NCBI GenBank assembly: GCA_044892525.1 | Contig: CM097885.1 | Coordinates: forward strand, 6,882,001-6,946,000 | DNA from: Schmidtea polychroa | Taxonomy: Eukaryota | Direction of reading: 5' to 3' | Length of the DNA: 64,000 nucleotides | Shown here: in pieces, positions 4,931 to 32,143 of the stretch | How the letters are laid out: each line of letters begins with the position of its first letter | Numbering within the stretch: position 1 is the stretch's first letter | The notes under the pieces: generated by a model | The model's database searches: none | Told to the model about the DNA's origin: nothing | What the model saw: the letters and a program-made list of their open reading frames with translations, nothing else | Position numbers and translations under genes: made by a program

Positions 4931-5016
4931 TTTATTTAAAAAAAAAATTTCCCGGGGGGGAGGGGGTATATGTGGCCGGGGGAGCTCCTGGCCTGGGGAG
5001 CTCCAATCATACTACT
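4760..5016. repeat. Polinton terminal inverted repeat (right end), about 255 bp
   Basis: Reverse complement of 63653-63908. Near-identical over the outer ~185 bp and more diverged inward. Confidence 0.85.
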
Positions 5017-6201: not shown

Positions 6202-6254
6202 ATTGGACAGAAAATAATATATAAAGAGCGACAAAAATCTGTAGAGTATCATTC
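6202..6254 (+). promoter_or_regulatory. Candidate LTR core promoter: reverse CCAAT, TATA box and initiator
   Basis: ATTGG at 6202-6206, TATAAAG at 6220 and TCATTC (TCAKTY-type Inr, A at 6251). TATA to Inr spacing is 31 nt. Same motifs at +26433 in the 3' LTR. Confidence 0.5.
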
Positions 6255-8624
6255 TAACCCGAAACTCTACAGGTAAAAGTTTATTTAAAATATTATCATC
6301 ATTCTAACCCGAAACTCTACAGGACTTCAGGACCACTTAGAACTTACTAGAACTCGTTTACGAAGCAATCCTACAAAACCACTTACAGCCGATAAGCCAT
6401 TTTAGACTACTGGTTAAGAGCCTACGGAAAGTACCGAGAACTTAGACGACTTTATTATTCTATTCGATCCAGTTTTAAACTCAAAGGTATACATTCGATT
6501 GATATTATGAATAGTTATTTGCTGTAAAAATGTTGAAAATAATGAAAAGTAGAATAAATTTTATTCAATAAATTCAATTTGAAATGAACAGCAGCCTTTT
6601 TCTTCATGGTACCGGCCACTGTACTATTTGGGACCTTCAGGCATGATGCGGCAGAGCGAAAATACGTTGTGAAAGGGTTTGCGAGTATGCGTTGCGACGG
6701 AGTAAGATATCAGTCGATTTTCGAGGTTGAAGAAGATTTGAGGAAATTGTCCAGTACGGAGGGACATGCATCTGAATGGCTCGGAAGACATCATGCTTGG
6801 AACCCAGATGGTGGGGTCGCCGGGTAAATCTGATTTATTCATTTTATTTGTTTTACAAAATTTTTCCATTAATGTCGGAGTTGATTTTGAATTGCTTGAG
6901 GAGAGGAGTTGATTGTCTCCCATGACGGTGCAAGGACGGCGGCAGAAATGAGTGCCGTTCTTGGGTGGGTCATGAGAGGTGAGGAAACTCCGTGAGTCGA
7001 AGTATAGCTGAAGAGTGAAATTTCCTTCATCGAGTGCGATCGACCACCGCTATCGTCGAAAATACACTTCTTAAAAGAGTAGTCGCGAAGATGAAATCAT
7101 GAGAAACTCCAGGAAATTGTCGAATCAACGTCTTTTAACATTACATCCAGTCGCCATCAATCGCATTGGAAAGTTAGAGTCTATGTCGTATATCCCTCGG
7201 GAAATTGACACGAGAATATCTGGTGATTGGGGAGCTATAGCTGCGTAAAAAATCCAATGTTGTTCGCAGAGAATGTCATAGAGCCCGAGATCTTCTAGAA
7301 TCCACATCGCCAGGACATTTACGACGAAACCCATAGTCAGTGTACTTTTGAGTTAGATTGTTGGTTATACGGCCACTGATAAGCCTAGATTTTCTGAGAA
7401 TAAAACAAACAAATCACGAGAAATTATCGGAATATTTACGATCGATGCTAGAGAAACCGCAGTCGAATTTATCGGAAACTGTCAAACTAATTTCAGACAG
7501 ATTATTATTCACCGGATTGTATGACTGAGGAAAATCCGCCGAAGAGAGGGAGCGATAATCGTCTCTGCCATAGGTTTAGTGAATGCGTTGATAGAGAGAT
7601 GTCTAAGAGTTGATAACGACTAGAGTAAATCATCAGTTCTGACCCGCTAGTGAATTGTCGCGTAATGATTGGGTGGATACTTCTAATCAATCTCCCAGAC
7701 AACTGAATCTTGATAATCCGCCTCATTGACATACTACCTGGAAATTCTTTCTCAGTAGACGACAAATTGTTCTGAGTCCTAACATGTTCTGTGACATAAT
7801 CGTGACGTAACAACGAGGAAGCTAATCGAGAAAACGATACTGTGTGCACAGGCGAAAGAAAGAGATCACGTGCGTAAGGCAGACACCCACTCTTAAACTA
7901 CCATTCGAAGCAAACACGTCACCAAAACCGATTCATAAGCTAGGGACAACTAACATTACTTTAGCATGCATTGTCACATGTTGAATTACATGCCACATGT
8001 AAACGAAAGACGATCTTTTAACACAACTACATATTGCGTAACGTCGTCATGACAACCTCACGGCAAAAATTTAAATAAAATCAAACCATCATAAACTAAA
8101 CTAAAGGTGAACCAAAGATGTTCTGCTGTTAATTTTTTTTCTTTTTCTATTTTATTTTTCTCTACTTGAACTACTTTAGTATAACATAACGAGGTCCATT
8201 GGATGTCGAATTTTTCTTTTATAATACGACTCGGTTTAGTTGTGTAGAACGTAGTAATGAGGAGTAAAATCGCAAACATCAGATAATGATAAATAAAATA
8301 AAGGGGTTAGTATTGTCAGCACTAGACTGATCAAGTGCGAAAAGGGGAATAGTCAAACTCATAACACGTACCGATTGTAAAATGATGACAAATAAATTAT
8401 GTCTAGAATTTTCGTTTTCTTCTCGTTAGGTGTTGATGGTTGAGGGGATGAATTTGAATGCTTGAAATTGGATGAATGGGGGCACCGACTGATAATTTGG
8501 GTGTTGGAATCACCACTGAATGGTTTGATTGCGAAAATGGTGAACCTCGTATGTAAAATAGGAACAAAATCCTAGCCAATAAATTTTGTAAAATTGATAA
8601 TAAAAAATTCTGTAAACTCTTTAG

Positions 8625-9385
8625 ATGAATACCTCTACCAGCTCTGGAAAAAATCTTCGCCCATGTCTCTCCTGCGCCGATAAAAACGCAGATATCGCGC
8701 AGCTCCACCTATATATCGGGGCATTGAAAAAGAGAATTGATCTCTACGAAGGCACGTGGTTCTCCCCGCCACAAATGAAAGAGGAACGCAAGAAAATTCT
8801 CCGATTAGAGCATTGCAGGGACAGCCTGCTGGAGGAAAGCCGTTGCCAGCGGCTCACGATCAAAGCACAATCGGAAGCCCTCCATAAAGTATATACGGAG
8901 GCAGAATTGGCCAAACGGGTCCGAGAATTTCCCGTCATCGAGAAAACCAATGTCTTCCCCCTCACCATCAGGCCTCCCAATCAACTTCAACAAGCTGCCA
9001 AGGGCATGGTACCTATCTGCCGCCCGTCCCGGCTCCAACCTTATCGAGTCATCAACCCTTGGTCGGTGGACCTACCGATCCCATCTTGGCTCCAATTTTG
9101 GTAGCACCAATCGGCACCGCGAACATAGAAAACCCTCCGTCTACTCGCAAACGGAAACGGCCAACTCGAGCCGAGAAGAATAAAAAACGCCGAGATGCGA
9201 TGGCCGCACTCGAAGCGTCACTATCGGTAGCCCAATCCACCATAAAAGAAATCTCTTCCAGCCATTCAATTCCAACGAAGGAAATTTTCCGTGTAATTCC
9301 CGCAGAGGGCATCAAATACGTCTCTAACCAACGATTGCCGGTCGACATCGACGAGATGCTTGCTGATGGAGAGTCCTTTGACTGA
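8625..9385 (+). pseudogene. LTR-encoded ORF, 5' LTR copy split by a 1-nt deletion (159 aa + 108 aa pieces)
   Basis: Same sequence as the 253-aa ORF at 35058-35819 but with C5 instead of C6 after TGTCTT. Confidence 0.7.
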
Positions 9386-9918
9386 CAGATTTCCATTGCC
9401 TTGATTCTGCAAGATTCGGAAGCGGACTTGAGTATTTGTGAATATTGAACATTTATTTTTGTGACAGCCCCTTTTTCCTTGTTATAAATGTAATTATTGT
9501 TGTGGATGTAATATAATTTTTATTGTCTCTCGGTGATTGTTTTTGGCATGCATGATATGGGATTAAAAGTGAACAATAGGACGGTATCAGATATAGGTAG
9601 CACTACAGAGTCGTCCCCTTGGACCAGGGAAGGACCGAATGATGTGTAGAGGAATGGGTAAGACCTTCTACGGCGCCATGGAACCCGAACCGAGACAGGG
9701 TTAGGAGTAGTCTTAAGGCAGAGGCTCACCTGCTAACCTTTTCCGACCCGTGTGAGCAGCACCAACGTGGAACATCACCACGGGCTCATACGTGGGAATA
9801 TGCATTTGATCATCTGGTGTATGTATGGGAAGTGCCTGAGCGGAACGATGACGCCTTGTATGAGTGAAGGTTGCGCGTGCGTAATTTTTCTCTTCCCCAC
9901 ATATGCCAACATGATTTT

Positions 9919-9936
9919 TGGGGGCTCAGCCGGGAT
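9919..9936 (+). promoter_or_regulatory. Primer-binding site complementary to the 3' 18 nt of a tRNA-Pro
   Basis: TGGGGGCTCAGCCGGGAT versus the canonical tRNA-Pro PBS of MLV, TGGGGGCTCGTCCGGGAT (16/18). Lies 7 nt after the LTR end. Confidence 0.85.
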
Positions 9937-10374
9937 ATTGAATATTGATTTATTTGATTGTCTATTTCTGTGGTATGATGTGTTAGCATAACAATCTAAT
10001 TAATTATGATAGAAATGGAATCGGGGCCGAAACGAATTATAGTGCAATGAAATGATACGAACTGTCTGAGTTTGAAATAGAGCATGTGGTGAATGAAACG
10101 AACCTAAATGAGTTGGAGTGAATGTGATGAGGCATGATGAGAAAAGAAAACGGGAATTAGTTATTGTAGTTAATATTAACTGGTTAAAATAAAAGGGGGG
10201 ACGAAAGAAAGTAAGTGATTAAAGCGAAAAGATGAAAGGGGAATTTCAAAGACCGAACAAAATACAAAAGTTAAAACACTAACGCATAAAAGTCAACGAA
10301 TATTAAATACAAACATAATAATATTATTTTTAATACCAGCAGGAACAAAATAATAACAACACATTCATTTAGAT

Positions 10375-10854
10375 ATGTCGGAAGCTAGACAACATCTACA
10401 ACAGCTAAGCCGGTTCATCGAAATAGAAAATGATTCAATAAAAACATTAAAGGAAAAACTGAAACAAATAGAACTGTTAGAACAACAAAGCCACAACGCA
10501 CCGCTGATATCCAAACAAAACTTTCTAACCGACAGATTAGGATCAACAAATACCGATACCGACTTGTCTACCCATTACCAATGGATGCAGCAACGACTCG
10601 ACGACCCCGCTCTGAACATCGAATATGTGAGGATACGCGAACAAGTCAAAACTCTGTCTCAGCGGATACGAACATCAATAGTAGAGAAAGCAGCGGCCTT
10701 GAGAACTTGTAACATTTGCAAGATGCGACCTGTCAAAACTCTGATTCTACCTTGTGGGCACCTTATCCATTGTGACGAATGTGCCGCCAGTTTAATCCGT
10801 TGTTCTATGTGCACATGTGTAATAAAAGAGAAGCACACAATCTATTTCAGTTAG
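10375..10854 (+). CDS. Coiled-coil plus C-terminal IAP-type RING finger protein (putative E3 ligase, no BIR)
   Basis: CNICKMRPVKTLILPCGHLIHCDECAASLIRCSMCTCVIKEKHTIYFS*. RING spacing and the terminal aromatic-Ser tail are as in IAP/MDM2-class RINGs. Confidence 0.8.
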   Translation: MSEARQHLQQLSRFIEIENDSIKTLKEKLKQIELLEQQSHNAPLISKQNFLTDRLGSTNTDTDLSTHYQWMQQRLDDPALNIEYVRIREQVKTLSQRIRTSIVEKAAALRTCNICKMRPVKTLILPCGHLIHCDECAASLIRCSMCTCVIKEKHTIYFS

Positions 10855-11446
10855 GTACGCGATCGTCGCTCGGTGAAGGAAATTGGATGATTAACAATTA
10901 GACTAAACATTTTGATATTTTTGTTCTGATTTAATTCGGTAATGTTTTATAATGATAGCATATATTATCTGTAATGTGGAGGAAATAACTAATAAATCCT
11001 TTTTGTGTATTCATTTCATTATACGAAGTTATAAATTGATTTGTGTTGTTATAATTTTCACCATGAAGAAAGGGCATTTTAAAATTTAAAATGATTATTT
11101 AAAGTGGAACTAGTCCCGTCATAGGGTTAAAGGGGGAATAAACCGAGCCACCTTCGGGAGGTACGATGTTGGAAACCGTTTGGGGAGGGACAACCGATCA
11201 CCCCGAGTAAGAGATGTAAAGCGAGGTACCATCGCGAATATTGAAAAGTTTCTGCGGTATGGCTGATCACCATACCAATGTAGAAATGGATCAATGCGAT
11301 CGTTTTGTGTTTTGAGCAAGGGGAAAAGGGGAAACATTCCAAAGCGGTACAGATTAGGTCGACAAATAAAAGTAAAAATAGGAAGATGACAGTATAGAAT
11401 AAAGACAGAAAAGGAACGGAAGCATGCAGAGTTTAGAGACATTAGG

Positions 11447-11745
11447 GCCGAGCTGTCGAAAAGTCCAGCCGGTCAGGGAAATTGAAACTGAGCTGTGAAA
11501 AGTCCAGCCAGTCGGGGATAATAAGGCCGAGTTGTTGAATAGTCCAACCGGTGAGGAGAAGAAGATTGAGCTGTTGAATAGTGCCAGCCAGTCGTAAGAT
11601 CGAGTTGTTGAATAGTCCAACCGGTCAGGAGAAGAAGATTGAGCTGTTGAATAGTGCCAGCCAGTCGTAAGATCGAGTTGTTGAATAGTCCAACCGGTCA
11701 GGAGAGGAAGATTGAGCTGTTGAATAGTGCCAGCCAGTCGTAAAG
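11447..11745 (+). repeat. Tandem repeat in the 5' leader: 73-bp higher-order unit built from two related subunits (34 + 39 bp)
   Basis: GAG(C/T)TGTTGAATAGT cores at 11568, 11602, 11641, 11675 and 11714 (period 73). More diverged copies lie upstream, about 8 subunits in all. Confidence 0.9.
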
Positions 11746-13129
11746 GCCTAAAGTAATAGTGAGATAGCATTTAAGCTACAAGTTGATAACATTTAAATTA
11801 CTAGTGAGATAGAATATTAAAGCTAGCTAGAAGCAAATTGAGTTTGAAATATGGAATTTGAATTTAGAAAGGATTAAACGAGCTCGTAAAAGATGATAGT
11901 AAAATTCTTTTAGTGAAGAAGGAGAAACGGAAAAGGAAAATGAATCAGGAGATAATAGAAACAATGAATAAGTATGAATAGATGATGAACCAAAGAGGAA
12001 ATAATTAATTAATTAAAGGGGATCCCAGATAGGTAGACAAAGTTCTACAGAATTTTTTTTGGGTTTAAACCGGTTAAACGAATTTTGTTTTTGGTTCCAG
12101 AGTAGAACCGAGTAAAAGGAAACAGAGACGAAAGAGTAAATAAAATAGCGGAACCGCGTAAAAGGATTAAGGAAAATATGGGGGGTAATAAGCAGTAACT
12201 GACAACGACCTATCGATATTATAAATGCTAACTATAGATAATTTATACGACTATATAGATAATTGTTACTACCCCAAATAGATAATTTAAAATCGACGAA
12301 AAATATGGGTTGATGGGTAATTATATTCCACGAAGAAGTGTATGAGGGGAAATGAAGAGAAGTATAACAGAGGCCCAAAAACGGTGTCTGTGCTTGAATA
12401 TGGTAAAAAGGAATGATTGATTCGTGTAAGCAAATGCAACACGATATCATTTTTTCATTGTAGATATCTATCCAACCAAGTCAATTCAGAACCAGCTCAA
12501 AAGGAATCTAGAGAATATACAAACAACCCAGGAAAAGCAATTCAGAACCCGCACAAAGGAAAAAACAAATCAATCCGAATACGGAGGACGACAACGACAT
12601 CTTTATCTACGACGGAATTATCGAAATACTTAGCATCGACGTACTAGCAGAAGTCAATCAAGGACTCAGATATCTCCTCCGGAAATCAGCCGAGAAATTA
12701 CGCAGAATATTCCTCGAAGAAAACACTATCAGAACCGAACTCGACCAATTCAGCAGCCGCTAACCGTAGAAAAACCCACGTGGAAAGACAGAAAAGAGTA
12801 AAAAGAAAATCACGGATAAACCCAACCTTAGATCTTCAAGTAAGCCAGGAGACGTATTATTTTCAGGAGACGAATTAGATCAACTCAAAAGAGGACGATC
12901 ATTTAGGCAGCAGAGAGGAATATCACAAGGAGCAAAAAGACCCCACAAAACACCGATATACGATCAAGAAAACCCCACAGCCGGACATACGCCCAGTCGA
13001 TCTAGAAGTAGAGAAAGCCTATCCGATATAACAAACAACCTAACCGGGTCAACAGAAGAATTATCCGTCTATAATTTAGCGACATCGCTGGAAAATTTAA
13101 AAGAAACAATAGAGTTACAAGAACCAGTC

Positions 13130-16078: not shown

Positions 16079-16084
16079 GAAAGG

Positions 16085-17158: not shown

Positions 17159-17178
17159 TAGACGAATGGAATGAGTGG

Positions 17179-23100: not shown

Positions 23101-26100
23101 AGCGAAGTTACCAACTACTTCAAGATCGCAAAATTTAGAACATCACCGTACCATCCACAAACTAATGGTATGACAGAAAGATTCAATGGAACACTGATTC
23201 AAATGTTATCAAATTATGTCGATCGTCATCAACGCGACTGGGACGAGTATATAAAATTATGTTTAATGGCTTACAGAATGTCGATTCACGCGTCCACAAA
23301 GATGAGTCCGTTTAGGTTGATGTACGGCAGAGAATGCAATATGCCAATGGATCTAGAATATCAGCCACCAATATCACAATACATGGAAATAGACGATTAT
23401 GTAACCAAGTTCAAGGAAAGAATGCAGGAAATCTGGGAAACTGCAGGATTGAATATAAAATTTTATCAAGAAAGTTACAAAGAGTTACATGATAGAAAGA
23501 AAAACGTCAAACAGCATACGTTTCAAACAGGCGATTGGGTGATGATCGAAACACCAGAATTAATCCCAGGAACCACCAAAAAATTACAACGAAACGGTAA
23601 AGGTCCGTATGAGATTCTATTCATCGGAGAAACCAATGTGAGAGTACGATTGGTAAACAACCCCTTCACGAGGCCAATATATGTAAATGTGGCACGATGT
23701 AAGCCAATACCGAAAACAGCCACCAGCCAGCCGGAAGGGCGAACATTAACAACAAGATCACAAACGTATAGAATAAATATGTTACAGCAGATAAACGAAC
23801 CAACAGGTAACCGATTGGGGTTACAACCATCAGAAGCCGAGAAAATCATAAAGGAAGTGAAAGCTAAAATGCCCGGATGGGCAGAAGACAGATTAGATTT
23901 TGAGATATTGGGAGGTCTGCTAACAATGATAGAAAACTATGCAAATCGAGAAAGAACACACCCATTGCTCAGGGTAGTTAAAAGTCAATGGCCTATATTA
24001 TTCACGATCACAGACCATTACGGAGACACACCCCTGCACAAGCTTTTAAAGGTGGGTAGTAACGAACAGATATTAGAAACAATTGAAGCATTTCGCGATT
24101 GTAACATTTCGACAGATCAAGAAAACAACCAAGGTTGCACTCCACTAATGATAGCAGCCAATCGGGATAAAGCTAAAGATATTATTATCGCATTACTTGA
24201 AACTGGGTCAAAGATAACCACACAAGATCACAACCATAAAAATGCACTACATCATGCAATCGAAGGGAAAAGCACTGAAGCATTCATAATCTTAGTAGAT
24301 CTATTATCGTACGAGGATAATAGGGAGATAGGAAACATGTATGACGGGTTATTAACTGCAATCAAAGAGAAATTAATAACAATTACTGGAATACTAATTG
24401 CATGGAGGAACCCGATCAAAAACGATTATATGGTAGATATAAACGAAACATTTACCAAAGGAGAAAACACCTTGATGAGGGAAGCGATGAGAGGACATCA
24501 CCTATTCGAAATTCCAAATCAACTACTACAACGTGGCATAAAGTTTTCAAATCACAAAGACGAGCAACTAATCAGAAACCGAATTACCAACTTCGAAAAA
24601 GCTATATCTCAATTTACCGATAAAGTACAAGTAAAATTTTGGGAAACCGTGAGTGTATTATATATGATGGAAAATATGAATAACATTCGAGAAACTTACC
24701 TAAGCATTATTCAAGTTCTAACGGCAGAGGAACGCATTAACAGTTCGAACAAGAAAAAGATAAAAATCAAGAAAATAACAGCAAGAGAGTCTGAGAAACG
24801 AGTCGATCAAATAATAAGATATATAGCAACAACAAGTAAACCAAAGATAATAAACTCCGACCAAGAGATAGTAATACGTAAGGCTAAAGAAGTATTCTTT
24901 GAAGAAATGCAAGATCTATCCGATGAAGCGATACTAGCAAAAATAACAAAAACAGTACACACCTACGCGAGAGACCAGACCACAAATCTAGACATAGAAA
25001 AAATAAAAACATTCATACCACTAGCATTCACCTTACCGACGAAAGATTCAAGAACACCATTACAACAAGCCATCTTAGCAGCAAAAGAAAACAGAGCCAT
25101 AACCATCATAAGAATTCTTAGAGACTTCGGGGAAGAATCTAATGCAAAAAATGAACAAGGAGAAACAGCAATGATGTATGCAGCAATAACAAATATACAC
25201 CCGAAAACATTACATATACTACATCAATCAGGATCAAGACTGAACGAAATATCGAACGAAGGGAATTCTACCATGGATTGGGCAACAATACAACCAAACT
25301 TGGAAATGATTAGATTCATTTGTAAAAATGCTACAAGAACTGAGGTAGAAAATATCTGTAAAAACACGTCACAGTTCCAATGGAACACGATACGGATGAA
25401 CTTAGAAGCCATGAAGTTATTGCTAACATGGAAAATACCGCAAACCAATAAATATGCAATAAATATAAATGAGTTCTACGAAAACGGAGAAAATGCTATG
25501 GTTAAAAATACACTAACAAAAGGAGGAACTCCGAAAATCATAATGATCGTATTGAACAGAGAAGACCTCAAATTCACGCAAAATCTAAACGAACAAAAGC
25601 GAATCGGAAAACATCGTCGGATACAATTAAGAGAATTAGTAAAAGAATGGAATAGAAAGAGACATGTAGCAACAGGCAGAAAGGAGTTCGAATTCGAAGC
25701 AAAATTAGCAAGAAACAGAGTGCTAACGGCATACCGCAGATTGTTGAATGATATAAATGTCGAGGACGACATTTTAAACGATAGCGGGGGAGATAAAGAC
25801 GATAAAGACGACGATAATAATGAAAAAGGTCGAAACGGGAATAAAGAGAAAGAGAAATCAGAGGAGAATAATCAAGAAAATAACGACGCGAGCAGGAAAA
25901 AAGAGGAAAATAACCCGGGAAACCGAAGGAAGCAAGAAGAAAAGACGAATAGTGGAAAACAGAGGGTATGCCTACTTTTTACCAACAAAGAAATGGAGAC
26001 AAATATGATGATAATGATACTCGTATTAACAATGGTGGAAATGATAACAGCCCAGGGAGGAATGAGAACGATAAAAGAAGCCAAGGAAACGGAAAATAAG

Positions 26101-27006
26101 GACAACAAAGAGGAAGAACTAAAACAAGAAAAGAAAAAACAAGTACAAGAGCAGCAATGGGATCTAAAAGAAGAATGGGATCTAAAAGAAAGGTGTATAT
26201 TAGGAAGATGTATGTCTAGAGCTTATCAGAGACTAGTGTTAAAAAATGAAGATGCAGAACCAATAACGGAAGTGGGAATACAAGAAGCGTACCAACATCG
26301 AAACGGGAAGAAGATAACAAAAGTCAAATGGAAAGAGGTACACCTGAGTAAAGGAGGGGAAATAGTGATAACACAGCTTCAACCAAGAAAAGAGCACAAA
26401 GTGTGTATTTCGAGGCTAGGCCCAGGAGAAAATTGTCTACAATATGTAACGCAACAACAACCACCAAAGGAATATACGGTATGTATCCTGAGAAACGGTC
26501 CAGAAAGAGAATGTCGACGATACCCTGGGAAAAGAGGGAGGAAAAGAAAAATCAATGATGAAAAAGATGAGCAAGGAAAACGCAAGAAAAACAGTGAGAA
26601 ACATCAAGACAATTATGTATCCGAGGAGGAGATGGAGAAAATACAAAAAATGGCAAAGGAAGGTATGAACGAGGAAATAGCAAGAATACGAGGAATGATG
26701 AAAGGAAATGGCAAAGACGGTAATCTAAAAAGCACAGAAGCAATATCAACAATAACGAACAAGGGAAAAGCGGAAATTATAAGCGTAAAACAGATGATGT
26801 GGATCAGCGGCATAATAATAACAGGGGCCTTTTTAATCATAACGGGGGGGACAATAAAAATAATCAAAGATAGACGGCATCGCGGAGAACTAGAAATGGC
26901 CAGAATAAGAAATTTTCAACATCGTGTAAAACGACCAAGTAATATCAAGCAGGAACAGTGGGTGGAGGCCTGTAATGCTCAGCGCCCTCCAAGCTCACGT
27001 ATATAG
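17179..27006 (+). CDS. pol: 3,275-aa polyprotein: AT-hook, Bcl-2-like, Env-like glycoprotein, PR, RT, RNase H, IN, ankyrin repeats, C-terminal membrane protein
   Basis: Single ORF whose frame opens at 17092 and overlaps the upstream ORF in the -1 frame. Motifs are listed in the sub-features. Confidence 0.95.
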   Translation: MRNNDSSLPRTDNERNPSYETTRETGTMMEKRAKGRPRKQGEKPEFKTREQLKQEQGQVRLEKLDKIVWDLKEAQPTIERGEKWIRELVKDMLIITNPQLRRLWQRKVASVDARQLWNTISGIIPKLIKEKTKTTKTDWEETRRVIEQLTLNANDDEHHLVVLTYLMYNLMGLAARKIPNKQFANHVEMTVTIIENTIEPHIIRAGGWKRLIQAPRKNEQERSMQIRLKKLLNELEWELPLKDPASRKASINSLMMTMMIWMLCTSGAAGFTIYDCDNSIIGERYSLRDIEECRQAFPNKLDIVKKKVSYHVYQESDFIRTQARECVVSKKVLAYYCGQYSYSTLILPGLDKEMVPIQREDCKELFRTGAMRIRDGVTIHGQSGMIKTESIYVAGRVKSTDGSCNGGTYTIRGEVISGVVVIESYTVELKEYEAQFDANNYQMKTNPACRATENVCRTGISTIIYEANTQKCRLQLLKSALFNEVKGEIYENEDDDEENGNVRMRNGKPVPPSPKEKRLTTQKSPTALITDDPDIGMRFIREKETTKCDSIVYRTNYAGIYMSRQVIDRAVGKVATEDVKLYLYANNKMDFLFHRGQTTMQKVYYDLIQNDCSLNKEILKTKLAIAITHPDNTMPSLPLPDGHFGRMVGEVMYTYACTKTFARLPRKPTIPPGKCANELEISYKGRNRFVQPVTRIMNPIGFYPNTFNCSNAYGPLYEKPDGKWIMLPVKTEVQEPKKFGLIELATEQDFKPIDVSKAGMYSPEDLETARLNVLFPARRESILSNMVTITGGTNFQSGPNYELLLSPDHFQQATSNMMKAMWGRFLVFGQMMAGILGIILIIQIVRVILTQMLACFDIYKREKKVNWKLIVGFLPFLAKTMVLHGHSKDIHRIKRLIKILTKIKGTDEEVGRRFRKTMYDEATRAQLKKNKPKFLDRFRNRSNSSDSDDDDNGNDKYPYPSRNPNEKPMETAPYWEKEKTNTWIANGSYIPPDIVGQQTALTMTQNMYPQLPSQPGMNYMPTRRTKSVDQADDVRTIAVMSSPGGAAVTVMIQINGKETSAMIDTGANVSAIAINQIPSKCWKDIEQTTIHIIACSKETVDVVGRWWTTLRYQDNEIETYLAVIPKLSEPCIIGTDLMPELFKEVVIDLTTMCLKDKMGRICKMNAIIRCPEKIIVPAKSQMICQIKVDAGMEGEAIFEPSKSFEKRRELPLAREIITIKEDREIPINITNFEEEDKIIYENERLGRLTPMIDIELPKITNETTKADELWTIDSTLLTEKEKERLQQLLIEYKDIFAISDLDLGACDVTLHAIPLIDETPIALRPYKLAEKQKEIAEAEVQKMLDAQVIEPSCSPWQFPVVMVKKKDGTQRFCIDYRKLNAVTKRDTYPLPDINEMLLMLQGAAYFTSLDLKSGYWQIKVKEEDKEKTAFTLGRDLYQFRKMPFGLTNAPASFQRCMNFVTHGIKQCMVYIDDLLIYSATFEQHLEDIRNVFIRLRQWKLKLKPSKCDWAKEKVTFLGQIVSAKGKEPDPRNIEKIKTCPAPKTVTQVQEFLGLCGYYRKFIKNYAGIAKPIQELVKKDISFIWGAEQQKAFETLRDKLIEAPILVHPDFKKPFLLATDASGYAAGAILGQLDEEGKERVIGYYSRTFKKHEKNYSVTEREALAIIQAIKHFRYLLWGHEICITTDHQPLVWLGQHKEASSRLMRWAMQLQEYSPFIKFKAGRANANADCMSRFIFPDLVDHEMQRICLMVAEDLDFCQLRKDQQEDTELKQIIEYVKTGKAEVYEKDQKLKEHMDKHRHRYIIEKDWLLIMDGEKRLMCIPENRRKDLLTQYHDGRLGGHMSSKKTLARMKQKYFWPTLTEDVTEWVKNCITCATRKNTGTKWKAPLKPMPVPAEPMTMISMDVVGPLPESDRGNIYILVITDYLTKFPEAFAMADQKARTIAKILVEEICCRYGTPKQILTDQGTNFMSEIMSEVTNYFKIAKFRTSPYHPQTNGMTERFNGTLIQMLSNYVDRHQRDWDEYIKLCLMAYRMSIHASTKMSPFRLMYGRECNMPMDLEYQPPISQYMEIDDYVTKFKERMQEIWETAGLNIKFYQESYKELHDRKKNVKQHTFQTGDWVMIETPELIPGTTKKLQRNGKGPYEILFIGETNVRVRLVNNPFTRPIYVNVARCKPIPKTATSQPEGRTLTTRSQTYRINMLQQINEPTGNRLGLQPSEAEKIIKEVKAKMPGWAEDRLDFEILGGLLTMIENYANRERTHPLLRVVKSQWPILFTITDHYGDTPLHKLLKVGSNEQILETIEAFRDCNISTDQENNQGCTPLMIAANRDKAKDIIIALLETGSKITTQDHNHKNALHHAIEGKSTEAFIILVDLLSYEDNREIGNMYDGLLTAIKEKLITITGILIAWRNPIKNDYMVDINETFTKGENTLMREAMRGHHLFEIPNQLLQRGIKFSNHKDEQLIRNRITNFEKAISQFTDKVQVKFWETVSVLYMMENMNNIRETYLSIIQVLTAEERINSSNKKKIKIKKITARESEKRVDQIIRYIATTSKPKIINSDQEIVIRKAKEVFFEEMQDLSDEAILAKITKTVHTYARDQTTNLDIEKIKTFIPLAFTLPTKDSRTPLQQAILAAKENRAITIIRILRDFGEESNAKNEQGETAMMYAAITNIHPKTLHILHQSGSRLNEISNEGNSTMDWATIQPNLEMIRFICKNATRTEVENICKNTSQFQWNTIRMNLEAMKLLLTWKIPQTNKYAININEFYENGENAMVKNTLTKGGTPKIIMIVLNREDLKFTQNLNEQKRIGKHRRIQLRELVKEWNRKRHVATGRKEFEFEAKLARNRVLTAYRRLLNDINVEDDILNDSGGDKDDKDDDNNEKGRNGNKEKEKSEENNQENNDASRKKEENNPGNRRKQEEKTNSGKQRVCLLFTNKEMETNMMIMILVLTMVEMITAQGGMRTIKEAKETENKDNKEEELKQEKKKQVQEQQWDLKEEWDLKERCILGRCMSRAYQRLVLKNEDAEPITEVGIQEAYQHRNGKKITKVKWKEVHLSKGGEIVITQLQPRKEHKVCISRLGPGENCLQYVTQQQPPKEYTVCILRNGPERECRRYPGKRGRKRKINDEKDEQGKRKKNSEKHQDNYVSEEEMEKIQKMAKEGMNEEIARIRGMMKGNGKDGNLKSTEAISTITNKGKAEIISVKQMMWISGIIITGAFLIITGGTIKIIKDRRHRGELEMARIRNFQHRVKRPSNIKQEQWVEACNAQRPPSSRI
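17400..17825 (+). other. Bcl-2-like domain within the polyprotein
   Basis: IEPHIIRAGGWKRL matches BH2 (L..WI...GGW..F). ETRRVIEQLTLNANDDEHHLVVLTYL sits in the BH1 position, but NWGR is degenerate. Confidence 0.6.
17941..19740 (+). other. Envelope-like glycoprotein resembling chuvirus-type (class III) fusion proteins
   Basis: Signal-like MMTMMIWMLCTSGAAG, then FTIYDC...SLRDIEEC, EC....LAYYCGQYS, SCNGG, ANNKMDF...QNDC.L, GEVMY..C, CANEL.I.......FVQPVTRI and a TM WGRFLVFGQMMAGILGIILIIQIV. The order of blocks follows chuvirus-like glycoproteins as I recall them. Confidence 0.72.
20320..20640 (+). other. Retropepsin (aspartic protease), followed by a dUTPase-like spacer
   Basis: AMIDTGANVS (D at 20368) and IIGTDL. 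Confidence 0.95.
21140..22380 (+). other. Reverse transcriptase and RNase H, Ty3/gypsy type
   Basis: PVVMVKKKDG..RFCIDYRKLN, LDLKSGYWQI, MPFGLTNAPASFQ, YIDD (21586-21597), TDASGYAAGAIL, YSVTEREALAI, TDHQPL. Confidence 0.98.
22620..23710 (+). other. Integrase (HHCC, DD35E, GPY/F)
   Basis: HDGRLGGH...CITC. D at 22888, D at 23068 and E at 23176 (35-residue spacing). GPY at 23602. Confidence 0.97.
24010..25520 (+). other. Ankyrin-repeat region after integrase
   Basis: GDTPLHKLL, GCTPLMIAA, KNALHHAI, GENTLMREA, RTPLQQAI, GETAMMYAA, GNSTMDWA. Confidence 0.85.
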
Positions 27007-27174
27007 AAAGGATTATGACTGTATATAGATTGTAAAAAGTAAGTAGGTAATATTTATTTATATAACAGTATTCTATATTTTTATATAAGCGCGGTATCAA
27101 TAGTATATAATGATGGGGATAATTAATATGAAAATAAAATTAGATAAGGATTGAAAAGTATATATAAATTAAGA

Positions 27175-27534
27175 ATGGAACGAATAGGCGAGGAAGTAAA
27201 TCACAGTACGACAACCGAGGAGATGTGGAAACAACAATGTGCAATGTTAACTCAAGTGATTTCGAATTTACAGGAACAAGGACTCGCTGTACAAAGAAGC
27301 TTAGTCGAAAGTTTAAATAAAGGCTTCAGTTATGTAAGAATAATCGAAGACCAACGAATAAAAATAGAACAAATGCAGCGAGAGATAGACCGAATATCAC
27401 GATACAGCCAGGTGCAAGAAGAGGAGTTAATAAGAATCGCGGAAGAGATGGAGCGAGAGGAGATAGAAGACTGGTCAGAATGGTTAACCAGCAGGGAAGA
27501 GGGCGGACAAGAGGCCGACTCTTCCAGCCAATAA
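27175..27534 (+). CDS. Accessory coiled-coil protein, about 119 aa (first ATG at 27175)
   Basis: Heptad-rich Q/E/R sequence with the same codon style as the element's other ORFs. Confidence 0.6.
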   Translation: MERIGEEVNHSTTTEEMWKQQCAMLTQVISNLQEQGLAVQRSLVESLNKGFSYVRIIEDQRIKIEQMQREIDRISRYSQVQEEELIRIAEEMEREEIEDWSEWLTSREEGGQEADSSSQ

Positions 27535-27623
27535 ATATAACCTAAAATAGCAATGTAAATAACTGTAAATAAAAATACGAAACTGTACCAGTAATGAATA
27601 TATGTATATATATAATTATAGAA

Positions 27624-29012
27624 ATGGATAAGCGACAACGAGAAGAATTCAAAGAAATTGTTGAACAAGTCAGAAAGTCCACCACAATTCGAATACACAA
27701 CCATGTAACGTGTGGAATATGCAAGAGCTTATTAAGAGAACCTCACCAAACCAGATGTGGATGCAGAATGTGCAGAGAATGTGTAGAGGAGATAATAAAG
27801 AAGGGACCACAATGGTGCCCAGTATGCAAAGAAACAATGATAACAAGTTTGGGAGATACAAACGAAGATAAAGCAGCTGTAAAAGATATGTTGAATGCAA
27901 ACCTAGGATGTAAAAACACCCCATGTAATTGGCGAGGAGTGATATGGGAAGTGAGGCAACATATGGAGCAATGTGAGTATAAAATCAGTCAATGCAAACG
28001 TTGCCAAGAAGAGATTAAAGTCAATGAAGAAGCAGAACATCAAAGTCGATGCGAAGAAAGACTGGAGAAATGTGAGTATTGCGGAGAAACCGACACCTGG
28101 AAAAAACTAATCAGTCAACATCACAACATACAAGAGAAGAAAGTGTGCGCAGAATTCAGAGGAGAATGCCCCAACAAATGCGATAAACCCGGAGTAATAA
28201 AACTCGCTCAACATCTAAAAGAATGTGAAAGAAAAAAGATAACGTGTGTGCTAGGAAAATGGGGATGTCAGAAACAATTACACCGAGGGGAATTACCCCA
28301 ACATCTAGCAGAAAACGTATCAACACACGCGGAAATATGGTCAACAGTATTACAAGAAAACGAAAGGAAAACCGAAAACTTAGAAAGAGAAATAGTCTCG
28401 CTAAAAGCGTTGGTAAAAGAACTATTGGAAGAAAAGGAAGCATTTGAAGAGGCGAGAACAAGTACAAAGATACAGACAGATCTAGTGGAAACTAGCAACA
28501 TTATGGTGAAAGAACTACATCAAAAAGTAAGCGAATTAAACCTCAACGAATTAATACCCACGGCTCCATACATATGGAAAATAACGGGAGTAAAAGAGAA
28601 GATGCAGAGAGCGAGAAATGGAAAGGATACAACATTACTAAGTCCAGCATTCTACTCATGGAAAAACGGGTATAAAATGAAAATGAAAGCATACCCCAAT
28701 GGGGATGGAAGTGCATACGGAACGCATTTCTCAGTATTCTTCTTGATGTGCAAAGGGCTATACGACGAGTTAATAGAATGGTCATTCAAAGCAAAAATAG
28801 ACCTCGTAATGATGAACTATCAAAGTATACATGAACAGAGTTTCCATACAGCGGGAAACCTCGTATGTTACCAAAGGCCCTTGGAAGAAGAAGGACCAGC
28901 AACTGGAGCACCGAATTTCATCCTACAGCGGAAAGCAGAAGACATGACGAGAAACGACACTATATACATAAAAATAGCGGTGAGGCGAGACGGGAAGAGT
29001 AGGACTGAGTAG
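27624..29012 (+). CDS. Intronless TRAF-family protein (RING, TRAF zinc fingers, coiled coil, MATH) carried by the retroelement
   Basis: CGICKSLLREPHQTRCGCRMCREC...CPVC, C.N..C.W.G...EV.QH...C repeats, and YIWKITG...SPAFYS..NGYKM....YPNGDG...GTH.SVF....KG.YD....W.F. Confidence 0.92.
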   Translation: MDKRQREEFKEIVEQVRKSTTIRIHNHVTCGICKSLLREPHQTRCGCRMCRECVEEIIKKGPQWCPVCKETMITSLGDTNEDKAAVKDMLNANLGCKNTPCNWRGVIWEVRQHMEQCEYKISQCKRCQEEIKVNEEAEHQSRCEERLEKCEYCGETDTWKKLISQHHNIQEKKVCAEFRGECPNKCDKPGVIKLAQHLKECERKKITCVLGKWGCQKQLHRGELPQHLAENVSTHAEIWSTVLQENERKTENLEREIVSLKALVKELLEEKEAFEEARTSTKIQTDLVETSNIMVKELHQKVSELNLNELIPTAPYIWKITGVKEKMQRARNGKDTTLLSPAFYSWKNGYKMKMKAYPNGDGSAYGTHFSVFFLMCKGLYDELIEWSFKAKIDLVMMNYQSIHEQSFHTAGNLVCYQRPLEEEGPATGAPNFILQRKAEDMTRNDTIYIKIAVRRDGKSRTE

Positions 29013-29229
29013 AGAGACGAATAATTTTGTATATACTAATTGTAAATATCGGCATATATACCCCGTAAAATAGTATATAGTAGTGTAGAAAAATCCCCGA
29101 ATCTAATAAAGGTAAACTTAAGCGAAAAACTCCTAAAACAACTCCTATAACGAATTGTAAAAATAAATAAAAAATAAGCCGAATATAAGCGTACAACGTT
29201 GAGTTAATGATATCGTTATTTAGACAAAG

Positions 29230-30267
29230 ATGACTCAAGATCAAACGGAAGCCCCAAATAACGAAATAAACATCAGTAGAATACATAGAGAAAGATGGGC
29301 CAAAGTGATGATACAATTATCAAACCAAACACGAAATTACCTCGAAGAAGCGAGAGAATGGGAAAACCACCAATTCCAGTGGTTAGTACAGAATTTACGG
29401 GCGGAGGCCGAGGCCTGCAAAAGAGCCGCCAAATGGTCGGCATTAGAAAATACCAGGCAAGAGGCGCACGGGCATTACCTGACGCAGCTGGTACAGGAGT
29501 CAAGAAAAAGACTAACGGATGAGAATAAGAAGCGGGAAATAGAAAAACAAAAGGAGGAAAGAAAGACCCGCCAACTACTAGCAGAGGCCAGAAAGTGGAA
29601 AAAACAACATCGAGAAATCCAAAAAGAGATGAGAGAATTGCCGCAGAGATTGGAATACGAAAGTGAACAAGGGAAATGGGAGGAAAACCTTGATCAGAGA
29701 GAAGAGCTAAGAAGGCTCAGGAAAATAGCGGCACGAAGTCAAACCTGGCAGACCAAGGCCATGGAATTTGAAAGGCATCTAGCCATGAAACTGTCCATGA
29801 AGGAACAGGAGAATACCGCCATGGAAGAGATGATCCTGCAACAGTCAGGTAGAATCGTCGAACTCGTAAACAAGGTGGCAGATCTTGAAAGAGACAATAA
29901 CGGCTATAAGGGGGCACTAGAACAAAGGAATATAGTGCTAGTCGGTAAGAACAAGAAATTGGAAAACGAGAGGAAGATGTATGACGAAAATATCAAGAAC
30001 CTCGAAAAGGAGATCAAAAAATGGGAGAACGGCGAAAAAGCGGAAGAGTTAGAAAAACAGATCGAAGTAAGGGACGACGAAACCAGGTATCTAACATACC
30101 TGTTGGACGAGGAACTCAATGCGTCAAGAGCACTAAGAGACGAAGTTCAGGAACTTAGAGCGCAGATTCCCCGGTACTACATCCCATTTGATCCCATCGC
30201 AATCCAACTACAAACGTCAATAGACAGCGATGAAGGATATGTAGGCCAGGAAGAGACCTTCGTATAA
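29230..30267 (+). CDS. Accessory long coiled-coil protein, 345 aa, function unknown
   Basis: Long ORF with continuous heptad pattern and no catalytic motif seen. Confidence 0.75.
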   Translation: MTQDQTEAPNNEINISRIHRERWAKVMIQLSNQTRNYLEEAREWENHQFQWLVQNLRAEAEACKRAAKWSALENTRQEAHGHYLTQLVQESRKRLTDENKKREIEKQKEERKTRQLLAEARKWKKQHREIQKEMRELPQRLEYESEQGKWEENLDQREELRRLRKIAARSQTWQTKAMEFERHLAMKLSMKEQENTAMEEMILQQSGRIVELVNKVADLERDNNGYKGALEQRNIVLVGKNKKLENERKMYDENIKNLEKEIKKWENGEKAEELEKQIEVRDDETRYLTYLLDEELNASRALRDEVQELRAQIPRYYIPFDPIAIQLQTSIDSDEGYVGQEETFV

Positions 30268-30442
30268 AGATAAATGGAAAAGATAAAAAATATAAAAATC
30301 GGGACCTATATCCCAACAAAAAAATTAATGGTACAGTAAAAGTAGGAAAGGGACTGTAGCCCTGATTATATAAATAACATATAATTGTATAAGCATAAGC
30401 CGCACTGTAGCGCAATCATTAATTATGTATATATTATAGAAA

Positions 30443-31165
30443 ATGAATACTGAAAACGGACAACCCATCATGACATCGATAATCGAGCTAGAGGAGGGAG
30501 AAATTGAAGTTGAGGAAGTGGAGAGGAAGAAAACTATCAAAGAAGAATTACAAGAAGAGAGACAAGAAAACGAAAGATTAGTAGAAAGGTGGAGAGATAA
30601 TCGAAAAATGATTAAAGTATTGAAAAGAGAATACACCTTGCTAGAAGAAGTAAAGAAAGAAGTAGAGGAAGAAAATGAATGGCTTCACGAGCAAAGAAAG
30701 CGAGGGAGAAATTGGGAAAAGATCGCGGAAGAATTATGGCAGGAAAGAGCCAGTCTCAAGGCTAATGAAGTGATTGAAGATTACTGGAAAACGGAAGCGA
30801 GGAAACGACAAGAAACTATCAGGGGTCTAGAAAACCAGCTGGGAGTAAAAGTACAGGAAAGTGCAGAAATGGAGAAATGGATCAATAAATACCGAGAAAT
30901 AGAAATAAAACGGCAGAAACAAAGTCCAAAGACGAACGACCCAGAGGAAAATGATTTCCTACAATTGGAACTAGAACGGAACCTGGAGGAGAAGAAGAAG
31001 GAGATAAAAACCTTGAAAAGAGAGATAAAGCACTTGACGGACAAGGTCCAAGAGAAAGATAGGCAGCTCGAAATGTTGCCGGAACTCCGACATAGGGTCA
31101 TTAAAGCAGAATCTAAATTAATGAGAATCCGAGAAAGAGACCCTAAAAAGAAACGACAAAATTAA
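30443..31165 (+). CDS. Accessory coiled-coil protein, 240 aa, function unknown
   Basis: E/K/R-rich heptads and a basic C-terminus (PKKKRQN). Confidence 0.7.
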   Translation: MNTENGQPIMTSIIELEEGEIEVEEVERKKTIKEELQEERQENERLVERWRDNRKMIKVLKREYTLLEEVKKEVEEENEWLHEQRKRGRNWEKIAEELWQERASLKANEVIEDYWKTEARKRQETIRGLENQLGVKVQESAEMEKWINKYREIEIKRQKQSPKTNDPEENDFLQLELERNLEEKKKEIKTLKREIKHLTDKVQEKDRQLEMLPELRHRVIKAESKLMRIRERDPKKKRQN

Positions 31166-31225
31166 AACCAACAAAAAAGCGATGTATATAAATATGTATA
31201 AAATAACTAAATGTATATCAGTATC

Positions 31226-31885
31226 ATGAGAAGCCAACCGATCATTGTAACGCTGATGATGATGATAATTCTTGATCTAACACGACGACAGCCAGTGAAA
31301 CCCCAAATCGAACGGGTTCGAGACAACAGAAAACCCAATCAGAAAATCGAACCAACAACCCCATCGTGCACCTGCTCAAATGCCATAAGAACCAATCTTA
31401 TCAATAACCTTCGAGCAACCCGAAACTACATCAACAACATCAGAATTATGTGTAATCACAACCCTATGTGTAAAATCATCGATAAAAGAATTCTGGACCA
31501 AATTCACCAAGTCGATTAATTAGAACAGCAGGTCCAACACCAAGAAACACAAAACCCACCTGATCAAGTAAAAAGCCCGAATGAAATAAACCACACCTAT
31601 GAACTCCTCTATGTGGTAATCGCCGAGACCACCTTAATCACAATAGTCACCCTGCTAAAAATCTATAACCTCTGCAAAGTTTGGAAGAAAAGTCACCCCG
31701 TATCAGAAAGATCATCTCGAAGGTCCCAAGAAGCTAACATGGCTGAAGTAATCCAAGAAAACCTCCGTCAACGAACCTCCATCGCAGAAACAGTCAGACC
31801 ATCCGCAAGTCGCCGAATATACTACAACATCGAACCCCAACAACCAAATCTCCCATCATCAACGGCAACTGAACAACACACATAA
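31226..31885 (+). pseudogene. Putative type I membrane protein (about 219 codons) split by one in-frame TAA at 31517-31519
   Basis: ORFs 31211-31519 and 31613-31885 share a frame and the interval between them is open. Signal-like IIVTLMMMIIL, Cys-containing ectodomain, TM LLYVVIAETTLITIVTLL. Confidence 0.55.
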
Positions 31886-32143
31886 CACTTCGAACTGCAA
31901 CTATTGACAAAATTCTTGATGTTTCATTGTTTTATGATAAAACCGGTCACCTTAAGTGACCACTGCTTGCTTATATTTGTCATTTTCTCTGTTTAATTAA
32001 AGTATTTTTTTGTTGTTAATTTGATTTTAGGTCTGTGTGGATTTTGATTGTGAGATTATGTGTCATACCGAAAGAAAGTATGATTTGAATGTATAATATT
32101 ATGTGAATTGCGGGGCGCAATTTTAACGGGCCCCGGAGTGATT

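Follow-up and report, generated by a model that had tools for sequence, protein, structure and literature searches.

A giant Burro-like retroelement of Schmidtea polychroa with acceptor-like sites before its open reading frames and a possible complex-retrovirus-like mode of expression

How could one retroelement express many separate open reading frames (ORFs)? The question is raised by a 64,000-nucleotide stretch of Schmidtea polychroa DNA (GCA_044892525.1, contig CM097885.1, positions 6,882,001 to 6,946,000, forward strand), referred to here as the window. A first-pass annotation had placed a 3′ splice acceptor 0–6 nt before every accessory ATG of an element in this window, and proposed that one long transcript is resolved into single-ORF messages by spliced-leader (SL) trans-splicing or by alternative cis-splicing. 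Among LTR retrotransposons described so far, Burro-like elements reach the largest size; one of them is reported to protect planarian stem cells via a captured anti-apoptotic gene (PMC13465017). Section 7 of the review PMC6431247 is silent on accessory-ORF expression, and our literature search, whose coverage excluded two key Burro papers, returned no account of how such elements express their many ORFs.

The element is a young, 30.6-kb, Burro-like Ty3/gypsy retroelement (Table 1). The hallmarks of this giant class were found: a length above 30 kb with multi-kb LTRs, a Gag with retrotrans_gag and CCHC knuckles, PR-RT-RH-IN order, a fusion protein between gag and PR in frame with pol (PF24664 at residues 494–833 and the protease at 1023, both in the 17260 ORF), and ankyrin, RING and MATH/TRAF cargo. 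BIR, BCL2-like, SUMO-like and dUTPase-like motifs gave no Pfam match at E up to 0.01, in a search without profile–profile comparison. The RT region returned only generic gypsy matches (31–49% identity) and no named Burro sequence; the element TRAF ORF found just eight distant matches (23–29% identity), none of 69 candidates in the RING search passed, ORFs b and c drew no assignment, an atlas search with b being uninformative, and exact look-up of ten element proteins, both starts of TRAF and of ORF d included, found none. An element-encoded SL RNA or other known RNA was rejected, with 0 Rfam matches at gathering score and 0 tRNAs. The 18-mer beyond the 5′ LTR is one that we take to resemble tRNA-Pro. 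Two lesions interrupt the polyprotein region of this copy, a stop at 16076 and, between 17092 and 17158, a break of frame; the ORFs at 16085 and 17260, which lack a YAG, were read as products of these breaks and rejected as genes with their own acceptors. A one-base indel near 8956 separates the copies of the LTR ORF (159 aa versus 253 aa). AATAAA at 10991 lies in a T-rich stretch 3′ of the RING-finger ORF, to which the relative P0009 aligns from its residue 2, and ORF d has a stop at 31517, beyond which the same frame stays open and encodes a transmembrane-like segment.

Table 1. Coordinates in the window of the element, its predicted expression signals and the neighbouring host gene
Feature	Position	Strand	Remarks
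Burro-like Ty3/gypsy LTR retroelement	5711..36345	+	30,635 bp; TG...CA ends; 4-bp target-site duplication CTAC
5′ LTR, 4.2 kb	5711..9911	+	7 differences vs 3′ LTR
TATA box (6218) and Inr-like TCATTC (6249)	6218..6254	+	predicted start near 6251
Candidate leader exon(s)	6251..6486	+	no ATG; 1 TG vs 8.9 expected; under-structured
Two AATAAA, possible LTR poly(A) signal	6553..6572	+	just 3′ of 6487 donor candidate
LTR ORF from ATG 8625, acceptor AG ends 8624	8614..9385	+	no Pfam match
Primer-binding-site-like 18-mer	9919..9936	+	7 nt past LTR
RING-finger ORF (10375, 159 aa) with acceptor (10372)	10360..10854	+	
gag acceptor, T-rich, AG ends 12463, then 666-nt leader	12450..13129	+	0 ATG; 2 TG vs 20 expected
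gag (CA, CCHC) – chuvirus-like fusion protein – PR-RT-RH-IN – ankyrin repeats	13130..27006	+	domain search
Spacer, TGTAHATA (27020), AAG acceptor candidate (27173), ORF a (27175, 119 aa)	27007..27534	+	
Spacer, TGTAHATA (27554, 27564, 27603), acceptor (27621), intronless TRAF ORF (ATG 27624)	27535..29012	+	RING, MATH
Spacer, TGTAHATA (29028, 29041), acceptor (29223), ORF b (29230, 345 aa)	29013..30267	+	charged
Spacer, TGTAHATA (30426), acceptor (30439), ORF c (30443, 240 aa)	30268..31165	+	
Spacer, TGTAHATA (31183), acceptor (31221), ORF d (31226)	31166..31885	+	hydrophobic N-terminus
T-rich stretch with ATTAAA (31996)	31904..32030	+	possible shared poly(A) site of 3′ cassette
3′ LTR	32144..36345	+	second leader-block copy; second LTR-ORF copy (253 aa, 35058–35819)
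Host TRAF gene outside element, acceptor-like site (50422), ATG 50428, four exons	50410..51923	+	

The sequence contexts cited by the first-pass annotation are all present where it placed them, those at host TRAF 50428 and CGTAG|12770 included. A YAG lies 0–6 nt before six of the seven accessory starts, whereas 27175 is preceded by an AAG that ranks fourth of ten in its own spacer. Likewise, the short spacer described before each ORF exists for the five 3′ ORFs (60–217 nt) but not for 8625, inside the LTR, or 10375, about 460 nt beyond the LTR end. YAG enrichment over shuffled controls, a check that had been proposed, is significant despite the A-rich background, with n = 7 in one element copy: dinucleotide shuffles of the upstream regions reached 6/7 in 0 of 10,000 trials, and mononucleotide shuffles with two ATG choices allowed gave P = 5e-4. 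Among other plus-strand ATGs of the element the background is about 20% (121/606), and control ORFs gave 8/43 (minus-strand shadow) and 4/26 (nested plus-strand). With a blind first-ATG rule, a YAG was found at five of seven accessory ORFs (binomial P = 0.005) and at six of ten large ORFs (P = 0.006). T at −5, a feature on which the sites had not been selected, occurs at 6/7 sites versus 166/754 YAGs. The AG-free zone before the sites spans 13–47 nt, whereas its median over 43 other AGs of the same regions is 9 nt (p = 0.007); against 18 other YAGs of these regions, p = 0.096. By an ad hoc acceptor score, not trained on the host, the ATG-proximal AG is top-ranked in its own upstream region in only four of seven cases. 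The starts at 27624, 31226 and host 50428 are second in-frame ATGs (first: 27594, 31211 and 50398). In silico, the arrangement of complex retroviruses, with an acceptor-like site before each downstream ORF, is present at 6/7 accessory starts as YAG and before gag at 12463.

The host TRAF gene does show the acceptor-before-ATG pattern attributed to it, and the site is real: its introns measure 45, 50 and 42 nt, and its 452 codons hold no internal stop. It is uninformative on trans versus cis splicing. Inheritance of the element acceptor from this neighbour was rejected, the element TRAF being intronless and 25% identical over 129 aa.

For gag, it had been suggested that an SL AUG joined at CGTAG|12770 accounts for a 120-codon ATG-less extension. 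The site exists in the gag frame, but the explanation does not hold. As an acceptor 12770 is poor (rank 615 of 2140 AGs by the ad hoc score), and as a gag start it was rejected, with stops at 12761 and 12767 just upstream in the same TG-free block; a further gag-frame stop of this region lies at 12509. The extension is not conserved, with no protein similarity to ten relatives (best E 4.8), whereas the next 120 codons match 10/10 relatives at 30–62% identity. The stronger acceptor is 12463, and the extension is the 3′ half of its 666-nt leader. From 27 nt before this acceptor to the gag ATG runs the longest ATG-free stretch of the element; TG per 150 nt is 14 before the acceptor and 0, 0, 1 and 0 in the next four windows, returning at the ATG, and the TG-free leader starts within 5 nt of the acceptor. 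The lack of ATG is inseparable from general TG depletion (1.8 ATG expected given the TG count), and the depletion could have another cause. Four predicted proteins of relatives carry differing N-terminal peptides with one common joining point, and copies read the leader in different frames, with compatible runs of 10–26 residues versus a maximum of 8 in 30 shuffles. Absence of W and C from the relatives' leaders (0 in 5/7, 1 in 2/7) was judged a weak signal because these residues are missing from low-complexity sequence in any case.

A second such block is found in the LTR, after motifs at 6218 and 6249 that we take to be a TATA box and an Inr-like element. Plus-strand scans across the whole window, at 236 and 600 nt, ranked the gag leader and this post-TATA/Inr block, with its 3′ LTR copy, highest for TG depletion; on the minus strand, four 236-nt windows are similarly depleted. 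The right boundary of the 6251–6486 block and the donor at 6487 were chosen after the TG pattern was seen. Shuffled sequences fold better than either the gag leader or the LTR block (z +2.15, 20 shuffles, and +2.35, 200 shuffles). Donor-like sites occur in the LTR leader, at CAG|GTAAAA (6273) and AAG|GTATAC (6487), and also in the spacers. The LTR candidates are modest: 6273 ranks 49 of 1014 GT sites with a generic matrix, which singled out no major donor. Duplication of a ~26-mer gives the segment 6273–6322 the look of a 50-nt intron.

Clustering of the Pumilio-like motif TGTAHATA in the 3′ spacers is a new observation. All eight plus-strand copies in the element lie in the five 3′ spacers, mostly 14–20 nt past a stop codon. 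A reading of UGUA as a CFIm poly(A) element is disfavoured because S. mediterranea has no UGUA upstream of its poly(A) signals (PMC5068929). Planarian poly(A) hexamers (set of PMC5068929) occur in four of the five spacers, not above shuffle level, with none between ORFs c and d; a poly(A) site in every spacer is not supported.

On balance, the element probably expresses its genes like a complex retrovirus, by cis-splicing of an LTR leader to about eight alternative acceptors. A single Pol II promoter in the 5′ LTR (TATA 6218, start near 6251) would yield a long RNA, from which a short AUG-free leader exon, ending at donor-like 6272 or 6486, would be joined to one of the acceptors. Each acceptor would be so placed that the first AUG downstream opens the next ORF, at 0–6 nt for the seven accessory ORFs and, for the Gag-Env-Pol polyprotein, at 666 nt across an AUG/NUG-purged leader. 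Unspliced RNA would be the genome, one 3′ end is probably common to the five 3′ messages, and a PUF-type RNA-binding protein that sets stability or translation probably binds the UGUAHAUA elements of the spacers. Plain scanning is implausible because 47–595 upstream ATGs lie between the LTR start site and each ORF start. The element anatomy, acceptor-like enrichment, two TG-free blocks, non-conserved gag extension and motif clustering are observed; the start site, donor use, every splice junction, the poly(A) sites and the binding protein are predictions. Of the originally proposed single transcript, then, the sequence statistics and the upstream-ATG load speak for resolution into single-ORF messages; the cis option fits better than the SL option. 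Splicing would have to span as much as 25 kb and skip many competing acceptors, a demand that counts against the cis model.

Cis-splicing is favoured over SL trans-splicing because an ATG-free, TG-depleted, under-structured block extends from TATA/Inr to donor-like LTR sites, because an upstream cis donor out-competes the SL (PMC4558846, PMC8629364), because at 4/7 sites the AUG at the SL end would fall out of frame (as it would for host TRAF, with overlapping frames of 9–48 codons being opened), and because the 3′ spacers show no enrichment of poly(A) hexamers. Operon-like resolution of the cassette by the host SL, from a long transcript or from weak internal spacer promoters whose outrons leave each acceptor without an upstream donor, is accordingly considered unlikely. 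Its case is that the five spacers of 60–217 nt fall below the 300-bp operon cut-off for parasitic flatworms (PMC12582326), an intercistronic distance of 300 bp or less being found for 5/7 accessory ORFs, that TATA-like words lie 41–93 nt before the ATGs of ORFs a, c and d, and that flatworms often use the same acceptor both in cis and in trans (PMC12582326); moreover, SL1-bearing as well as SL1-free forms of the spliced 2.4-kb mRNA of C. elegans Cer1 are found (PMC3315495). The SL acceptor motif UUNYAG (PMC12582326) is matched at 27621, 30439, 12463 and host 50422 versus 33/2140 AGs, but at only two of the seven originally proposed sites and also in one of three host cis introns. An SL AUG at 12463 would meet a stop after 15 codons, the c–d spacer holds no poly(A) hexamer, and an outron has no reason to avoid ATG and TG, yet the LTR block lacks them. 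Slightly less probable still is a true eukaryotic operon, in which the SL, alone or competing with the LTR leader, would be combined with Pumilio control through spacer UGUAHAUA; if true, it would tie expression of the cargo (TRAF, RING E3, membrane protein) to stem-cell state.

Two readings would dispense with splicing at these sites. Each ORF might have its own small internal promoter, or be reached by termination–reinitiation or an IRES, with the AGs as unspliced start context. The spacers are rich in TATA words (40 vs 12 expected), TGTAAATA, which we take to contain a forkhead-type DNA core, was counted for an internal promoter, and a purine at −3, found at all seven accessory starts except 8625, itself favours an AG near the ATG. 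Still, T at −5, the AG-free zones and a TG-free leader whose start lies no more than 5 nt from an acceptor located 666 nt ahead of gag are left unexplained, and TRAF and b have no canonical TATA far enough upstream, rendering this reading improbable. It is very improbable that the pattern arises as a side effect of ATG choice and of spacers richer in T within an A-rich element: any AG lies within 0–6 nt of 270/606 other ATGs, two starts are second ATGs, one site is AAG, and the AG-free zone is not significant against other YAGs. Conversely, the excess stays significant in spacer-matched mono- and dinucleotide shuffles, under the blind first-ATG rule and against two ORF controls, and the gag-leader boundary and TGTAHATA clustering are independent signals.

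The anatomy provides an exact map of one leader, eight predicted acceptors and a repeated RNA element per spacer. If cis-splicing from the LTR leader is right, it would explain continued gene gain by a retrotransposon, since an acceptor and an ATG would suffice for each gene; Gag-Pol mRNA would form a pool apart from genomic RNA, and the element would have converged on complex-retrovirus gene expression. If SL trans-splicing is true instead, a mobile element would use host trans-splicing as its operon system.

Complex retroviruses join a 5′ donor, transcribed from one LTR promoter, to several acceptors. The present element differs in being Ty3/gypsy, about three times larger and known from predicted junctions only, and its Gag appears to need a spliced message. 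Foamy viruses have their donor within the LTR, upstream of the poly(A) signal (PMC3694450), as predicted here. Cer1 is likewise gypsy-type and makes a spliced subgenomic mRNA in an SL-using host, with SL1 possible, but it yields a single spliced product, its gag-pol mRNA being unspliced (PMC3315495), whereas about eight acceptors, that of gag included, are predicted here. With flatworm SL operons (PMC12582326, PMC8629364) the cassette shares same-strand ORFs 60–217 nt apart and an acceptor just before each start; in contrast, it has donor-like sites and an AUG-free leader upstream and no clear poly(A) signal per cistron, and a retroelement must also retain full-length RNA. The closest likeness in content is to the planarian Burro/GYPSM1 elements (PMC6431247), which also exceed 30 kb and have a Gag with CCHC knuckles, accessory ORFs, a mononegavirus-like fusion protein that precedes PR-RT-RH-IN and shares its frame, and ankyrin, RING and MATH/TRAF modules; this set is also described with one polyprotein of ~4,900 aa. 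BIR, BCL2 and dUTPase had no match here at Pfam E up to 0.01, and TRAF is a separate ORF downstream of pol, whereas it lies in the polyprotein in S. mediterranea and upstream in D. tigrina (PMC6431247).

The ORFs of the Burro-like giant Ty3/gypsy LTR retroelement at 5711-36345 (+) are probably expressed through splicing, taking cis-splicing and spliced-leader (SL) trans-splicing together, as judged from the sequence. Self-comparison revealed 4.2-kb direct repeats at 5711-9911 and 32144-36345 with 99.83% identity and 7 differences; their ends are TG...CA, and a 4-bp target-site duplication is present. Pfam searches identified a zinc-knuckle Gag (13130), a RING ORF (10375) and a RING-MATH (TRAF) ORF near 27600. 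A 3,248-aa ORF at 17260 encodes a chuvirus-like fusion protein and, after it, PR, RT, RNase H, integrase and ankyrin repeats. Among the LTR ORF and the other four accessory ORFs, Pfam matched just ORF a, weakly and below cut-off. This architecture is that described for planarian Burro elements (PMC6431247), a likeness that suggests a planarian host; Burro1 is known from Dugesiidae and Geoplanidea, according to PMC13465017, and Burro RNA is reported to rise in piwi-knockdown animals (PMC8532177). Gag-pol is disrupted in this copy, at 16076 by a stop codon and somewhere between 17092 and 17158 by a break in the frame; neither 16085 nor 17260 was therefore counted as the start of a gene.

Several further features were observed. 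The fusion glycoprotein domain (18739-19760) lies in frame, 5' of the protease, and is chuvirus-like (Monjiviricetes, E 7e-72). The LTR itself holds a protein-coding ORF (8625-9385 and 35058-35819) whose copies differ by a one-base indel and have no Pfam match. At 31226-31885, ORF d and the stretch that follows it in frame resemble a single small membrane protein split by one stop, with a hydrophobic N-terminus and a later transmembrane-like segment. Tandem repeats of ~73 nt occupy 11443-11743, past the RING ORF and ahead of gag; a strong donor-like site (11551) lies in one of the units. Elsewhere, the window contains an interrupted hAT transposase (43988-45834; BED finger, dimerisation domain), a DDE transposase fragment (5135-5428), pieces of another retroelement (55357-56576; RVT_1 at 55785), and inverted repeat copies with TGACCTTGA arrays at 4695-5020 and 63649-63975, bracketing a 58-kb span.

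The first-pass annotation had placed a splice acceptor 0-6 nt before each accessory ATG (LTR ORF, 8625; RING, 10375; a, 27175; TRAF, 27624; b, 29230; c, 30443; d, 31226). All sequence contexts it quoted are present, and YAG was found at this distance at six of the seven starts, 27175 being preceded by AAG. The background frequency is 121/606 for other plus-strand ATGs, 8/43 for shadow ORFs and 4/26 for nested ORFs. The shuffle control proposed with that claim confirmed an excess above chance: when the seven upstream regions were shuffled with dinucleotide content kept, at least six YAG sites arose in 0/10,000 trials and at least five in 0.09%. The second in-frame ATG had been taken in three genes (element TRAF, ORF d, host TRAF); under a first-ATG rule, YAG remains at 5/7 starts (P = 0.005), or 6/10 with the gag-pol starts added (P = 0.006). 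The alignment of element TRAF to host TRAF starts one residue before the second Met, which mildly favours the start at 27624. T at -5, a feature not selected on, occurs in 6/7 sites vs 166/754 YAGs. Compared with 43 further AGs in these regions, the sites are richer in T, poorer in G and have longer AG-free zones (p 0.001-0.007); against 18 other YAGs the same features gave p 0.005-0.096. On an ad hoc acceptor score, the ATG-proximal site ranked top within its own upstream region in just 4/7 cases. The acceptor observation is partly confirmed; the short spacer described before every ORF holds for the five 3' ORFs (a, TRAF, b, c and d) but not for the remaining accessory ORFs. Donor-like GTAAGT hexamers occur at 10211, 161 nt 5' of the RING acceptor, and at 27039, 134 nt 5' of that of ORF a; short introns are possible there.

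The rule of an acceptor followed by the first ATG appears to apply to gag as well. The acceptor ending at 12463 (rank 13 of 2140) scores far better than CGTAG/12770 (rank 615), which is in the gag frame but a poor acceptor. From 12463 to the gag ATG, 666 nt contain no ATG, the longest such gap of the element. TG occurs twice in this leader vs 20 expected (P = 5e-7), and the left edge is sharp, with the final TG at 12459. Mononucleotide shuffles were ATG-free in 1/10,000; given the TG count, however, the expectation is just 1.8 ATGs, which makes the signal a loss of all NTG and not of ATG alone. Depletion of ACG was not found in the leader. The leader folds less stably than its shuffles (z +2.15, 20 shuffles), and the gag frame meets three stops within its first half.

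The 120-codon ATG-less extension of gag is best read as 5' UTR. Extension plus Gag as query matched 11 proteins at E below 1e-30; when the extension itself was compared with 10 relatives, no match emerged (best E 4.8), whereas the next 120 codons matched in 10/10. In four relatives, differing N-terminal peptides meet at one shared point, which lies ~130-150 residues ahead of where Gag begins; behind this joining point, copies use different reading frames of the DNA. These proteins look like predicted gene models spliced onto a common acceptor and an unconstrained leader. In one Gag relative, P0009, a RING ORF is fused from the equivalent Met to the gag leader and Gag. The RING-before-gag order of the element is kept in this diverged family. 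The proposal that an SL AUG joined at CGTAG/12770 explains the extension is unsupported, the site being weak and the extension not conserved in the 10 relatives.

A comparable block lies in the LTR at 6251-6486, with no ATG and 1 TG vs 8.9 expected, its right edge having been set after the TG pattern had been seen. In plus-strand scans of the whole window, the strongest TG depletion falls in this block, in its copy in the 3' LTR and in the gag leader; four minus-strand 236-nt windows show comparable depletion. It is under-structured (z +2.35; 200/200 shuffles fold at least as well), and beyond 6487 both words return (19 TG and 8 ATG in 236 nt). The two blocks, 12464-13129 and 6251-6486, both TG-depleted, ATG-free, under-structured and sharply bounded, are likely 5' UTR exons. 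The LTR donor candidates are modest on a generic matrix, and host TRAF donors are likewise weak. Two AATAAA sit 66-80 nt beyond the site at 6487 (at 6553 and 6567), a layout recalling foamy viruses, where the donor is placed 5' of the LTR poly(A) signal in the account of PMC3694450. Further candidate poly(A) sites are at 10991 and 31996. A ~26-nt duplication in 6247-6322 makes a GT-AG segment of 50 nt, in which CTAAC resembles a branch point; excising this segment would give the same 5' end as initiation at the second Inr-like word.

Candidate signals in the LTR and the 3' spacers (window coordinates)
Feature	Position	Location or strand
TATA box	6218	LTR
Inr-like word	6249	LTR
Donor-like CAG/GTAAAA	6273	inside LTR block
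Donor-like AAG/GTATAC	6487	right end of LTR block
TGTAHATA	27020, 27554, 27564, 27603, 29028, 29041, 30426, 31183	+

The gaps upstream of the five 3' ORFs (693 nt) contain all eight plus-strand copies of TGTA[ACT]ATA in the element, at least one per spacer; we take this word to be the Pumilio consensus. In 4/5 spacers one copy begins 14-20 nt past the upstream stop. Dinucleotide shuffles gave a mean of 0.84 motifs and reached 8 in 0/10,000 trials; when every 8-mer with one free position was admitted, as a look-elsewhere test, 0/2,000 trials equalled the observed clustering. The motif shows the spacers to be built regulatory modules and is neutral on cis vs trans splicing. The 3' messages would form a nested set with a common end, each predicted to carry, directly past the stop, a protein-binding element that might serve translational control or shield the message from nonsense-mediated decay. 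A role of UGUA as CFIm element is disfavoured, because the five spacers show no excess of poly(A) hexamers and S. mediterranea, as far as the account in PMC5068929 extends, lacks UGUA before poly(A) signals.

Cis-splicing of the LTR leader to alternative acceptors is tentatively favoured as the route of expression. In this model a leader ending at 6272 or 6486 would be joined to downstream exons beginning at 8625, 10373, 12464, 27174, 27622, 29224, 30440 and 31222. The ATG-free LTR block speaks for it, because a discarded outron may contain AUG and a retained common leader may not. SL trans-splicing at the element's acceptors would account for the operon-like spacing, has a precedent in Cer1 (according to PMC3315495), and finds UUNYAG at 2/7 sites and at 12463. 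Flatworm SLs terminate in AUG (as stated in PMC12582326), yet this AUG would be out of frame at 4/7 sites, the LTR block is AUG-free though an outron need not be, and an upstream cis donor is reported to beat the SL in competition (PMC4558846, PMC8629364); we regard SL trans-splicing as unlikely. Host TRAF (50428) is an ordinary gene of four exons, whose acceptor-like site could equally be the closing of a 5' UTR intron.

A description of Burro transcript structure was not found in the full-text literature searched, though an earlier one may exist. The element type is already known, as is multi-acceptor splicing, from complex retroviruses; what would be new for a Ty3/gypsy element, if true, is the predicted eight-acceptor scheme with its spliced gag message and the motif recurring in the spacers.
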